From NCBI GenBank assembly GCA_019057475.1, contig DXJO01000006.1:160001-224000 (forward strand): DNA of 64,000 nt, given 5' to 3'. Positions 33,066 to 39,733 of the stretch are shown in pieces (positions within the stretch are counted from its first letter, which is position 1; each line of letters starts with the position of its first letter). The notes below the pieces were generated by a model that did not search any database, was not told the DNA's origin, and saw only the letters and a list, made by a program, of their open reading frames with translations. The DNA is from Candidatus Thorarchaeota archaeon. Its GTDB lineage: Archaea; Asgardarchaeota; Thorarchaeia; Thorarchaeales; Thorarchaeaceae. The position numbers and the translations under genes are program-made.

Positions 33066-33257
33066 TCACGGTCCGGAAAATGACTGAGAGAGGAGCCAGA
33101 TCAGCAACGCGATAAGCGCTAGCAGAAACGCGCCTGTCAAGACCCAGCGCCAATCATCTCCCTCACCGAAGTCTGGCCAGCAAAACTGCTGGAAAGCCGT
33201 CCCCCTTCCGAAGAGTCTGCACGTCTTGGGAACCGGGGCTTTTGCAAATGCAAGCAT
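33066..33257 (-). CDS. Putative tail-anchored microprotein
   Basis: 63 aa; single TM WVLTGAFLLALIALLIWLL followed by a 7-aa tail; AGGA before the ATG. Confidence 0.5.
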   Translation of the reverse strand: MLAFAKAPVPKTCRLFGRGTAFQQFCWPDFGEGDDWRWVLTGAFLLALIALLIWLLSQSFSGP

Positions 33258-33321
33258 AGTCCTTCGCCTCGCGATCGTCTACTGCTCCGTTGGATATACG
33301 AGCCATGCTAAATTCTCTTAC

Positions 33322-34332
33322 CTAGTCTGGCTTGAACTTCTGCATGTCCTCACAGACTTTTGCGATTCCATCAACGCCTAACACTTCCGTGGAATACAGA
33401 GGGATGTACGCGCTGACCAAGTCTCCGAGTTGATTGTGAATCATGTCCATGTATCGATCTTGCTGTTTGAAGCTATTCTTCATATACTCGGTAGCATCCG
33501 CTTCTGCAACTGCTCGTGGAATAATGCGATTCACGAAGACACCGCCCACGGGGATATCGAATGCTCGTACCATCTTGATGAAGCGTTCTACTACTGCGAT
33601 GGGAAGTGCCAACGGGATCGTGACAAAGATGAACGCAGTCTTCTCAGCGTCGTTGAGGATTGCTTTTGCTTTCTGCATCTTCTCATGTTGACGCAGCAAG
33701 TCTGCCATCATCGGGTCTTTCTCAACTTCCTCCTTAATTTTGTCCTTTCGGAAGGACAGTTTCACACGGAGCGATAATGCTTCCTTCCTGCTCTCAATCA
33801 TGCGGCCCAGCCAAAGGTCATAGATCTTGCTCAGACCGAGCAAGCGAATTGCATTGGCTACTGCCGCACAATCGAAGATGATGATGTCGTAGTTCTCCTC
33901 CTTTTCAAGCATTATATCAGTCATGGTGTCGAACTGGGCAGACTCCTCGAAGGCGGGATTCGTGGCGGCAATCTCAATGAATGAAGCAGGATCGACTGGA
34001 ATATCCGCCCACTTGAGAAATGACGTGATGCGCTCTGTCAGCTGTTCCCTGTATACCTCAATCTTTTTTTTGATATCTACCTCTACAGCCCACAGATTCT
34101 CAAGCCCTTCGATTTTCTGAACTCCGCGTCCCCAGATATCTTGGCCATAGAGGCTGGTAAGGGAGTGAACCGGGTTCAGCGAGGCAACAAGAGTCTTCTT
34201 GCCCTGCGTGGCGAAATAATGCCCAATGGCAGCAGCACTGATTGTCTTGCCAACTCCGCCTTTACCTCCGGTAAAGAAGAACTTGATTGATGGATGCTTT
34301 TCTACGAACTCTTTGAATGTAGGTGCTGTCAT
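33322..34332 (-). CDS. Get3/ArsA-family ATPase B (degenerate switch motifs)
   Basis: GGKGGVGKT; switch I SLNPVHSL; switch II DCAAVANA. Confidence 0.9.
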   Translation of the reverse strand: MTAPTFKEFVEKHPSIKFFFTGGKGGVGKTISAAAIGHYFATQGKKTLVASLNPVHSLTSLYGQDIWGRGVQKIEGLENLWAVEVDIKKKIEVYREQLTERITSFLKWADIPVDPASFIEIAATNPAFEESAQFDTMTDIMLEKEENYDIIIFDCAAVANAIRLLGLSKIYDLWLGRMIESRKEALSLRVKLSFRKDKIKEEVEKDPMMADLLRQHEKMQKAKAILNDAEKTAFIFVTIPLALPIAVVERFIKMVRAFDIPVGGVFVNRIIPRAVAEADATEYMKNSFKQQDRYMDMIHNQLGDLVSAYIPLYSTEVLGVDGIAKVCEDMQKFKPD

Positions 34333-34336
34333 CTTT

Positions 34337-35344
34337 CTAATCCTCCGTTATTTTGCCATCCCAATTCATCATAATGTCACCCACTTCGGCAATCATTTTC
34401 AGTCCCTTGGGTTCCCGATCAAACATTGGGATTACTGCACAAACATAGTTGCCCAATTCCTTCTCGATTTGAACCAAGTATTTTTGCTGCATCTCTATGC
34501 GTTCACGTAGAAAGTCGCCCAGGTCATCACGCTTGAGAAGTTCCCGAGGATAGACCTGGTTGACAACAACCCCAGTAAGGGTGATGTCCATCTGCGCAAA
34601 CATATCCAGCGCACGCCTGGTGTCCAAGATTGCCATCTTCTCTGGGACAATGACCATGTAGAACGCTGTTCTCTTGCTATCAGTAAGGAGGTCCTGGAAA
34701 AAGCCAAGTTTCTTACGGATTTCCTGCAGCTCGTTAAGCATCTCATCTTGACCGGAAGCTGCTCCCTTCTGTTGAATTCGGTATGCAGAATCACCGTATT
34801 CTTGGGCCATTCTTCGCGTTTCTTCCATCTTGTCAATCCACATATCTAGTATCCGCGCCATTGATACCATTCTGATTCCGTGACCAAATGGAGGCATATC
34901 AAACACGTAAAAGTCGAATTCCTGAGACGCTAGAAGACCTGCCATGGCGTCGTAGGTGGCTGACTCGTGCATCGCCGGTTCAGCTGCGGCTGCAGTTATG
35001 TACTCATCAATCTCTCTTGGAATCTCATCGATTCCGTACATGTCCTTGATCTTCTGGCGAATCTCTTCCTGAAAGATGGCTATTCGCTTATCAGCGTCTA
35101 TCTCCATTACATACAGGCTCTCTTGTAGCTCCTGTCTACCCTTCCCAAAGATGTCTTTCTCGAAGATATCGGATAGCGACGCCTGCGGATCGGTACTGAA
35201 GCAGAGAGCCCGCCGACCCTTCTTTGCCAGCCAAGATGAGAGGGCAGCGCTGCATGTTGTCTTGCCCAATCCACCCTTGCCGGCGAACACTGCGATTTTC
35301 GTATCGTGATTAGATGAATAATAGTCACTCATTTTCGAAGTCAT
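34337..35344 (-). CDS. Get3/ArsA-family ATPase A
   Basis: GKGGLGKTT, STDPQASL, DMPPFGHG, VVVNQ and EPKG motifs. Confidence 0.92.
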   Translation of the reverse strand: MTSKMSDYYSSNHDTKIAVFAGKGGLGKTTCSAALSSWLAKKGRRALCFSTDPQASLSDIFEKDIFGKGRQELQESLYVMEIDADKRIAIFQEEIRQKIKDMYGIDEIPREIDEYITAAAAEPAMHESATYDAMAGLLASQEFDFYVFDMPPFGHGIRMVSMARILDMWIDKMEETRRMAQEYGDSAYRIQQKGAASGQDEMLNELQEIRKKLGFFQDLLTDSKRTAFYMVIVPEKMAILDTRRALDMFAQMDITLTGVVVNQVYPRELLKRDDLGDFLRERIEMQQKYLVQIEKELGNYVCAVIPMFDREPKGLKMIAEVGDIMMNWDGKITED

Positions 35345-38125: not shown

Positions 38126-38310
38126 TTCCTCTCTGAGAATGTCCCGTTATGAAACATCCCGAATTATGTGAGCGTTTTATAATACGAAACTTGACCTTAA
38201 GTCTAGCGGTAACTGGATTTCCATAGCTATTAGTGAGCAAATAACCACATTTAGCACAAGAATATGCTTTGGAGCAATAGGAAAATCAGCTGGAGAAGCT
38301 CTTTGCTGGC

Positions 38311-38910
38311 TCAAGACTCGTGTCCGTGGCACAGAACTGAATTCAATGAAGCAACTAATTTGTTAGCATTCTCAAGAATCATTTTAGAAGATTGTGACTT
38401 CCAAGTGAACGTTAGAAGCCTCCCGGTTTCTTCACAGGGAATGTATCCTTCAAGATTAGCAATAGGTATAGGTCGTCCTATAATCCCGAAACGGCGTCGA
38501 TAACCGGTCCAAAGCGCATAGCTTCCAGCATGATTGCCTGCATGTAGTTCACCATGCTCAACGACCTCCCGATCCTTCTTTGTATGACGTGTTAAGAGGT
38601 CCTCGGGTGTAGGTGCAATTGGTCCTAGCTTCTGCAAGTCCACAACTACCCTCAATGTGAAGTCGAGGTTGGGTCTGCTCGCCCCATTTCGCTGACTAGA
38701 GATGAGACACTCAGTTTCCCCAGTTCCCACCCAAATCTTATTCTTATAGAGAAACCGATTAGTGACTAGGGGTTCGTCTAGCTGATAGCCGGTCATCCAC
38801 GACTCAGGTACGCGAATGTAGTTGAATAATGCACGGCCAAAGAATATGTTCCATGCTTCGATTGCGATCTCGCGCGTCCCATTGTCCTGCTTATTGGCAT
38901 CGTTTGGCAT
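38311..38910 (-). CDS. Hypothetical soluble protein upstream of cstA
   Basis: About 200-aa beta-rich ORF ending CEETGR...SVLCH. Confidence 0.7.
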   Translation of the reverse strand: MPNDANKQDNGTREIAIEAWNIFFGRALFNYIRVPESWMTGYQLDEPLVTNRFLYKNKIWVGTGETECLISSQRNGASRPNLDFTLRVVVDLQKLGPIAPTPEDLLTRHTKKDREVVEHGELHAGNHAGSYALWTGYRRRFGIIGRPIPIANLEGYIPCEETGRLLTFTWKSQSSKMILENANKLVASLNSVLCHGHES

Positions 38911-39055
38911 GAATGCGCCCTCAATTGGTGATGAGCCCCTTGTTATATTCGTTGTGCAGTTCTCGGCTGCCAATTTCGTCGGATATCCTTAAAGGGAGGA
39001 TGTGGGGTCACGAGAACAACACTACGCAACTAGTTATCGCCTGAGGTTAGAGCTG

Positions 39056-39733
39056 ATGCAAGACATTGAAACCGTTGGTCTCTACATCGTGATGGGACTT
39101 GGGGTTGTATTGATTTGGATTTGGATGGCAGGCCGGATGTCCACCAAGAAACTCCGCAACAAGATTGCCCAAGACATTGCTACGCGCTTTCAATCGATAA
39201 CCTCCAAGGTCAGTGTGAAGCTCCTCGGGAATACGGGAGTCAAGTTCGCACTTCACCAAAAGGCGAAGAGCTCATTCTCTAAGCTGGAAGCAACAGTCCT
39301 GCTCCTTGATCGTTCCAACGCATTCCATATGCTCTATTGCAAGGTCCGCCATCGAACTGATCAGATTCAAATCCGAGGGAGTCTTAAGGAAAAGCCTGCT
39401 ATCCGGGTTGAGATGGCATCTGCCAACGAGAAGCAGAACTTGGATGATACACTTAAGGATCAAGCCAACAACCTCAAGGAGTTCAAGGTAGAGTACCTAG
39501 CTGAGTGGCTCTATATTCTCACAAATGATACTGGGGATGGAGCTGATTTCTTCGACCAATCAGATGTAAGTGCAGCTTTCAAGGAAGCAGCACAATACTT
39601 GACCCGTATATCTATTGCTCCACGTGAACCTCACCTCTTTATCTCAGCGGTGCTTGTCCCACAATCTGTGGAGCCAATCGAGCGGCTTACTCTCTCCATC
39701 GCAAAAGGAGTCCGCAAGAAGAATAGAAAATAG
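39056..39733 (+). CDS. Membrane-anchored CCDC47/DUF1682-like protein
   Basis: N-terminal TM; 'LEATVLLLDRSNAFHMLYCKVRHRTDQIQIR' and 'LYILTND...LTRISIA' resemble recalled CCDC47 core segments. Confidence 0.6.
   Translation: MQDIETVGLYIVMGLGVVLIWIWMAGRMSTKKLRNKIAQDIATRFQSITSKVSVKLLGNTGVKFALHQKAKSSFSKLEATVLLLDRSNAFHMLYCKVRHRTDQIQIRGSLKEKPAIRVEMASANEKQNLDDTLKDQANNLKEFKVEYLAEWLYILTNDTGDGADFFDQSDVSAAFKEAAQYLTRISIAPREPHLFISAVLVPQSVEPIERLTLSIAKGVRKKNRK

Follow-up and report, generated by a model that had tools for sequence, protein, structure and literature searches.

Transporters of the CstA family mediate the proton-coupled uptake of pyruvate or peptides. In a computational study, Castillo and Saier (2010; PMC2963123) described operons in which cstA is accompanied by a gene for a 90-amino acid (aa) protein, cstX, sometimes by cstY, coding for a 210-aa protein with a single transmembrane (TM) segment, and by one or two genes for single-domain ArsA homologues. 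Duplications of cstX and ATPase pairs sharing 25-31% amino acid identity were reported, no ars genes were recorded, CstX was proposed as the coupler of the ATPase to CstA, and a D-to-N substitution was mentioned only in passing and not tied to one fixed partner of a pair. A gene cluster of this kind is found at positions 33,066 to 39,733 of the 64,000-nucleotide (nt) stretch of Candidatus Thorarchaeota contig DXJO01000006.1 analysed here (the window). Its core, comprising cstA, two cstX (DUF7990) genes and two ArsA/Get3-like ATPase genes, is the cstA-cstX-(cstY)-arsA cluster, with which it has in common the CstA protein, the CstX proteins of approximately 90 aa including duplicates, the single-domain ATPases of 330 aa, the lack of ars genes and, probably, a single-TM protein of approximately 210 aa (Table 1). 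No experimental follow-up was found in the literature searched, and the cluster appears to have gone without experiment since 2010. The preferred reading, with a probability of about one half, is that the cluster encodes an accessory complex which is powered by ATP and acts on CstA in its mature state, and in which the product of a divergently transcribed gene, a short relative of eukaryotic CCDC47 (mini-CCDC47), would be a subunit resembling the mycobacterial protein TtfA.

The host belongs to the Asgard archaea, and relatives from the same family are labelled Thorarchaeota. An earlier note on this DNA had seen in the cluster a pairing of homologues of two eukaryotic endoplasmic reticulum biogenesis machines in an Asgard archaeon. 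A scan with ATPase B recovered 48 loci encoding two ATPases (pair loci) from the Bathyarchaeia, Caldarchaeales, Thermoproteales, Methanoperedens, Chloroflexota, Acidobacteriota, Thermodesulfobacteriota, Myxococcota, Pseudomonadota and others, and since these span many bacterial and archaeal phyla, the module is patchy, cross-domain and not Asgard-specific. The co-occurrence of the genes in other genomes, which the note had anticipated, was thereby borne out. As minimum counts, many of the contigs being short, cstX is present in at least 46 of the 48 pair loci, cstA in at least 40, a CCDC47-like gene in at least 26 and the gene for a beta-rich protein in at least nine. Within the Asgard phylum cstA is found in 16 of 400 genomes, including 10 of the 87 in the order. 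The Thorarchaeota carriers of the cluster keep the same gene order, and a CCDC47-like gene adjoins cstA in 13 of the 16 cstA-bearing Asgard genomes, with the contig ending in the remaining three. The pairwise identities of CstA, ATPase A and ATPase B correlate across 29 loci (Spearman 0.84-0.93), which indicates co-inheritance only, as kin among these loci are not independent. No solved relative of CstA is detectable by sequence, and long CstA copies are not fused to other cluster proteins.

The genes for the two ATPases lie 4 nt apart and their products share 29% amino acid identity. Both score above the cut-off of the Get3 family model TIGR00345 (214 and 218 bits against 135) and, like Get3/TRC40 and the archaeal stand-alone Get3 proteins, consist of a single ATPase domain with a deviant Walker A motif. 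Unlike these, they are two paralogues, one with a degenerate site, form part of a separate clade, have fewer methionines in the helical subdomain and lack the zinc-binding CxxC motif of the dimer interface. This motif occurs in none of 121 pair ATPases, which average fewer than one cysteine; its presence in 10 of 10 stand-alone Get3s is no test, as that comparison class was defined by it. The helical subdomain contains nine and six methionines in the two ATPases here against 18 in the canonical Get3 of the same genome and, comparing pair ATPases with stand-alone Get3s, is poorer in methionine (4.5-5.8% against 7.8%) and richer in charged residues (36% against 29%), values which describe composition only and not the groove surface. 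In a quick, midpoint-rooted tree, all cstX-linked ATPases form one clade (SH-like approximate likelihood-ratio test support of 98), separate from the stand-alone CxxC Get3s, and A and B are sister clades derived from one duplication. The identification of both ATPases as Get3 in the earlier note thus requires revision: the canonical stand-alone Get3, with its CxxC motif and Met/Gly-rich subdomain, is encoded elsewhere in the genome (contig C42; locus L009:5114-6112). By eye, it is situated near translation and transcription-factor-like genes. Two EMC3/TMCO1 insertase genes are also present in the genome, outside the window.

The two ATPases of a pair differ consistently in their active sites. 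When A- and B-types are assigned by profile score, independently of the switch I motif, 61 of 61 A-type sequences retain both the Asp of switch I and the Gly-His of switch II, whereas all 60 B-type sequences have Asn in place of the switch I Asp, with the switch II Gly lost and the P-loop intact. The equivalent D57N substitution in yeast Get3 results in ATP being bound without hydrolysis (PMC12506534). ATPase B is probably a pseudo-ATPase which has lost hydrolysis, and the motif asymmetry suggests that A and B are obligate partners in a heterodimer of which only one site works. Complex prediction gave no verdict, the combination of A, B and ATP with the core CstX scoring 0.50, a control with B replaced 0.42 and unrelated partners 0.00, which is evidence neither way. 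A fixed pair of one active and one degenerate ATPase represents a clean natural model for asymmetric Get3/ArsA catalysis. In one locus (L041:5667-6854, genome G093), ATPase B has an apparent internal duplication.

The two CstX paralogues are 40% identical over 58 aa and are both matched by DUF7990 (PF25952). They are the small paralogues that the earlier note had described as two small hydrophobic proteins, but their hydrophobicity is only moderate (best 19-residue mean 1.3-1.6). Across loci, CstX is encoded directly upstream of an ATPase in 65 of 66 cases; because its weak hydrophobic peak (median 1.5) is followed by approximately 33 residues, it is not tail-anchored. Per locus, one CstX copy is highly conserved while one to three others diverge, as is evident in the Thorarchaeota relatives, where the core copy (paralogue 2) is 84-90% identical and paralogue 1 about 45-54%. 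Both copies here score below the cut-off of the cory-CC-star family NF041419 (31 bits, and 17 bits for paralogue 1, against 80). The C-terminal Cys-Cys of that family is found in 15 of 20 single-ATPase loci against none of the 81 CstX copies in pair loci, and by these sequence criteria both CstX proteins are assigned to the wider DUF7990 family rather than to cory-CC-star proper.

The mini-CCDC47 protein is a probable CstY, since its size (the class of approximately 210 aa), single-TM topology and linkage agree with the published description. In PMC2963123, CstY was not linked to CCDC47 and was seen with single ATPases only, in five archaea, and the PsbP-fold, ORF118 and 63-aa proteins discussed below were not described. 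The AlphaFold2 model of mini-CCDC47 (predicted local distance difference test score of 96) retrieves with Foldseek, as its top three matches, the CCDC47 chains of three translocon structures (E 8e-10). Its structural alignment to residues 135-399 of 7tut_4 includes 217 of 225 residues (Z 18.9, root mean square deviation 2.7 Å), Atlas structure matches include a CCDC47 cluster, and the next fold match after CCDC47 is TtfA (Z 12.9). The family comprises 207 representatives at 50% identity, and the Pfam CCDC47 family (PF07946) is matched by 29 of 140 members (best E 3.3e-8), with no match for the mini-CCDC47 of this locus itself. PDB sequence searches with CCDC47-like profiles were not significant, and the link is seen only via the fold searches and the Pfam matches of relatives. 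The resemblance to CCDC47 which the earlier note had proposed for the divergent gene is therefore upheld, and the model indicates that mini-CCDC47 is a true but shortened CCDC47 homologue. As in CCDC47 of the eukaryotic PAT complex (PF07946; PDB 7TUT/7TM3 chain 4, 9I78 and 6W6L), a TM segment is followed by the same cytosolic globular fold with a basic surface. Unlike eukaryotic CCDC47, to which it is 11-12% identical, it has no signal peptide, no luminal domain and no C-terminal coiled coil, ending where the eukaryotic coiled coil starts (the alignment stops at target residue 399), and the mini form is patchy in occurrence, transporter-linked and has no detected Asterix partner. A 2026 review (PMC13261788) regards the PAT complex as having no obvious bacterial homologues, and no paper naming an Asgard or bacterial CCDC47 was found in the incomplete literature searched, so that while the cluster has been known since 2010, the prokaryotic CCDC47 family seems to be unreported there.

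In the proposed accessory complex, CstA would be the carrier, while A and B would form an asymmetric Get3/ArsA-type heterodimer in which A is catalytic and B binds but does not split ATP. The core CstX would link this dimer to CstA at the membrane, a linker model already put forward in PMC2963123, and through these contacts the ATP cycle would switch or assist CstA, as ArsA does for ArsB. The mini-CCDC47 protein would be a single-pass accessory subunit which binds and stabilises CstA, as its fold relative TtfA does MmpL3, and the PsbP-fold protein may be its soluble partner. TtfA is a stable MmpL3 partner required for transport (PMC6593404). The mycobacterial TtfA-MmpL3 system (PDB 6T84) shares with the cluster a related globular fold in an accessory protein on a multipass transporter, but the transporter belongs to another family, the identity is 6% and there is no ATPase pair, and the likeness is by fold only. 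An accessory complex, which corresponds to the second option of the earlier note, an ATP-driven regulatory system for a transporter, is favoured because the tightest links are those between CstX and the ATPase and between the ATPase pair and CstA, while the genome has its general genes for targeting and insertion at other sites.

Several observations weigh against this preference. CstA works in Escherichia coli without such an ATPase. The CCDC47-like gene is not dependent on CstA, given that 109 of 400 Asgard genomes match the family and that no cstA was found in approximately 90-95 of them. The cytosolic domain of mini-CCDC47 is basic (isoelectric point of 9.8, in the top tenth of the 150-300 aa proteins of the genome), as would be expected of a ribosome binder. 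Finally, three of the components, namely those related to Get3, CCDC47 and Eag, have fold relatives that handle TM helices and fit a role in biogenesis equally well.

A dedicated role in membrane-protein biogenesis, the other option in the earlier note, is possible though clearly less probable, and represents the main rival because of these three components and because the CCDC47 domain stays basic. The ATPase pair, perhaps together with the PsbP/Eag-fold protein, would shield hydrophobic segments of CstA or CstX during assembly only, and mini-CCDC47 would dock at the ribosome-SecY site or hold the nascent transporter. This is consistent with the fold of the TM and globular part, which is truly that of CCDC47 and in eukaryotes makes contact with eL6 and rRNA H25 (PMC7505659), and with the basic surface kept in 17 of 17 copies tested. 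The fold of the beta protein is of the Mog1p/PsbP type (Z 12.1 against cyanobacterial PsbP) and is also that of the Eag TM domain chaperones SciW and EagT6; since photosystem subunits and Mog1 have it as well, the fold leaves the function unfixed. For the ATPases, the passage of PMC11170914 citing Suloway states that the CxxC-less Get3 of Thermococcus kodakarensis binds tail-anchored proteins, so that the pair ATPases may yet have a groove function. In PMC2963123, a T. kodakarensis ArsA homologue falls into the cluster for which the members tested are part of cstA-cstX-cstY operons, and we infer that it and the Get3 of PMC11170914 are one protein.

Against a biogenesis role stands the missing coiled coil of mini-CCDC47, the element which in eukaryotes is wedged against Sec61 and extends to the exit tunnel (PMC7505659). 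Furthermore, while the earlier note had treated CCDC47 as the intramembrane chaperone of the PAT complex, its TM-binding chaperone is Asterix, with CCDC47 interfering with Sec61 opening (PMC13261788), and no match to Asterix (PF03669) above the cut-off was obtained in five genomes, although a remote homologue could escape. A weak match in locus L191 proved on inspection not to be a plausible gene. No insertase family recurs in the neighbourhood of the loci, mini-CCDC47 is found in only 28 of the 48 pair loci (a minimum, when two divergent copies are counted), a search of 20 single-ATPase cstX loci did not detect it, and the helical subdomain of the ATPases is more charged and poorer in methionine than that of stand-alone Get3s.

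Beyond the cluster, nearly all genomes of several Asgard families match the CCDC47-like family (22/22, 11/12, 7/7, 6/6 and 5/5 genomes), but this query detected no match in the largest one (0/135), nor in cstA-less Thorarchaeota. The cstA-linked and unlinked copies interleave in a tree of prokaryotic copies. Among the Heimdallarchaeaceae, 26 of 31 genomes match the family and none of the 31 has cstA. Their copies, such as the stand-alone genes L094:6104-7030 of Ca. Heimdallarchaeum aukensis and L100:6068-6967, code for proteins of approximately 300 aa with a Lys/Glu-rich C-terminal tail of 64-76 residues, which score above the Pfam cut-off with a match to nearly the entire profile (positions 8-314 of 326) and some of which are automatically labelled DUF1682/CCDC47 at NCBI. 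These long-tailed proteins are the best candidates for an ancestor of the PAT subunit. It may be tentatively suggested, with more doubt than confidence, that CCDC47 originated in prokaryotes and has a conserved role in the assembly of multipass proteins, the mini form with the asymmetric pair and the Eag-like protein being a client-specific kit for one transporter, and the cstA-independent Asgard forms, including those of the Heimdallarchaeaceae, being general ribosome-translocon factors ancestral to the PAT subunit. The cluster alone is no evidence of an Asgard proto-endoplasmic reticulum pathway. With a small CCDC47 core from prokaryotes and a named candidate client for it, the function of the domain becomes testable in bacteria.

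The beta protein travels with the mini-CCDC47 gene and can stay with it even where no cstA was found (L088). In the loci L087 and L088 (family f32, which includes Borrarchaeum), mini-CCDC47 and PsbP-fold genes, once together with cstX, occur where no cstA was found, and an APC-like permease gene adjoins them in L088. In the bacterial loci L113-L141 the CCDC47-like gene usually lies between cstA and cstX on the opposite strand (in 21 of 26 loci its strand is not that of the ATPases), which suggests that it is transcribed separately. The copy in L119:5266-7733 is apparently frameshifted, possibly through an assembly error.

Gating of CstA by metal or redox state, with the ATPase pair and small Cys-bearing partners loading, sensing or relaying a metal or thiol state, is improbable. 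In E. coli, btsT is followed by genes for a small protein and a metal-binding GTPase, and the Cys-Cys tail of CstX in single-ATPase loci is missing from pair loci, where other Cys proteins appear instead. The latter include a mostly CxxC-containing family in approximately 20 loci, the beta protein with its conserved His/Cys/Cys/His set, the C-P-x-C protein ORF118 and rubrerythrin neighbours. Conversely, none of the Cys proteins is universal, several pair loci are without these accessories, and the ATPases themselves average fewer than one cysteine. The CxxC family is a recurrent 120-145 aa protein in pair-type loci (e.g. L103:3772-4158, L109:11040-11456 and L086:4549-4923), thioredoxin-like by appearance only and absent from this window. 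Genes for rubrerythrin-like, conserved 182-aa and, by motif, ketopantoate-reductase-like proteins recur in Thorarchaeota 3' of ORF118 or ATPase B (L006, L007, L039-L041, L043 and L085), and some of these Thorarchaeota loci contain an additional cstX copy approximately 3 kb away.

It is highly unlikely that the purpose of the module is delivery of the 63-aa tail-anchored protein by the pair acting as a Get3. The earlier note had counted this protein as part of the module, of which it is not a core member. The gene is real, starts 64 nt downstream of ATPase B and codes for a near-terminal TM segment (residues 39-57 of 63, mean hydropathy 2.58) ending a few residues before the C-terminus, the N-side flank of which, acidic here and mixed in a homologue, does not favour an N-in orientation. 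Its rejection as a spurious open reading frame (ORF) was considered and abandoned on account of homologues in two clusters, the same gene order in a second Asgard lineage and coding constraint, which is evident from third-position bias and 15 synonymous codons against the L085 copy (43% identity). It was, however, not found in eight Thorarchaeota loci spanning the interval, nor in 48 other pair loci. In both homologous clusters it is followed by ORF118, in one case within a cstA cluster of the second Asgard lineage and in the other in L193, next to radical-SAM-like and PHP genes, where the 9.8 kb read contained no cstA cluster, and a canonical Get3 is available elsewhere in the genome. The 63-aa protein is thus an optional passenger paired with ORF118. 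The latter is seen only in Asgard cluster loci and L193 (L193:1937-2268, where it is apparently frameshifted, possibly an assembly error) and has no convincing Pfam family; it is unrelated to both the beta protein and the family of CxxC accessories.

Arsenite or antimonite efflux by a split ArsA (A and B) driving CstA is the least likely of all: the ATPases belong to the ArsA family and resemble, beside a secondary carrier, the two non-identical halves of the ATPase in the ArsA-ArsB pump, but these are encoded by separate genes and not as two fused domains, CstA takes the place of ArsB, the scores to the pump model TIGR04291 are 95-98 bits against a cut-off of 650, the metalloid-binding cysteines are lacking here and are not conserved in single-domain homologues (PMC2963123), and, as the earlier note had observed, ars genes are missing, with no match to the ArsB, Acr3, ArsD, ArsC-type (LMWPc) or ArsR families within the window. 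Matches to the ArsB, Acr3, LMWPc and ArsR families are present elsewhere in the genome, and none to ArsD was found anywhere in it.

Table 1. Genes of the cstA cluster and their positions in the 64-kb window.
Gene product	Position	Strand	Length (aa)	Features
Mini-CCDC47 (probable CstY)	39056..39733	+ (divergent)	225	One N-terminal TM and basic cytosolic CCDC47-fold domain; without C-terminal coiled coil
Beta protein	38311..38910	-	199	Soluble, Mog1p/PsbP fold; conserved H127, C159, C194, H195
CstA-family transporter (cstA)	36344..38116	-	590	PF02554, E 1.5e-95; at least 13 hydrophobic segments by hydropathy
CstX paralogue 1 (DUF7990)	35889..36164	-	91	Divergent copy; PF25952
CstX paralogue 2 (DUF7990)	35393..35683	-	96	Conserved core copy; PF25952; directly upstream of ATPase A; no Cys-Cys tail
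ATPase A, ArsA/Get3 family	34337..35344	-	335	Retains the catalytic Asp (Asp52) and the Gly-His of switch II; CxxC absent
ATPase B, probable pseudo-ATPase	33322..34332	-	336	Intact P-loop; Asn (N53) in place of the switch I Asp; without the switch II Gly
63-aa protein	33066..33257	-	63	Single TM at the C-terminus; genuine gene, though optional; paired with ORF118
ORF118	32570..32926	-	118	Soluble; invariant C-P-x-C; just beyond the range of the earlier description and overlooked there

The ORF layout given in the earlier note is correct throughout, a second, independent gene caller returning the same genes at the same positions. Since several genes are separated by gaps of 140-205 nt, the cluster may not form a single transcript. 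RNA-library contigs from a close relative, all of one study and mostly 90-95% alike, extend over the genes for CstA, CstX and the two ATPases; such contigs cannot prove transcription, and the uncovered parts are uninformative. Promoter and terminator scans, tuned to bacteria, gave results at chance level, and the GC content of the cluster equals that of the genome. The cluster is flanked by genes for two large, secreted and C-terminally anchored proteins, namely an 897-aa phospholipase-D-domain protein (window positions 28936-31629) and a gingipain-like C25 peptidase with CARDB/PKD repeats (40493-48712), the latter comprising 2,739 aa according to the gene call.

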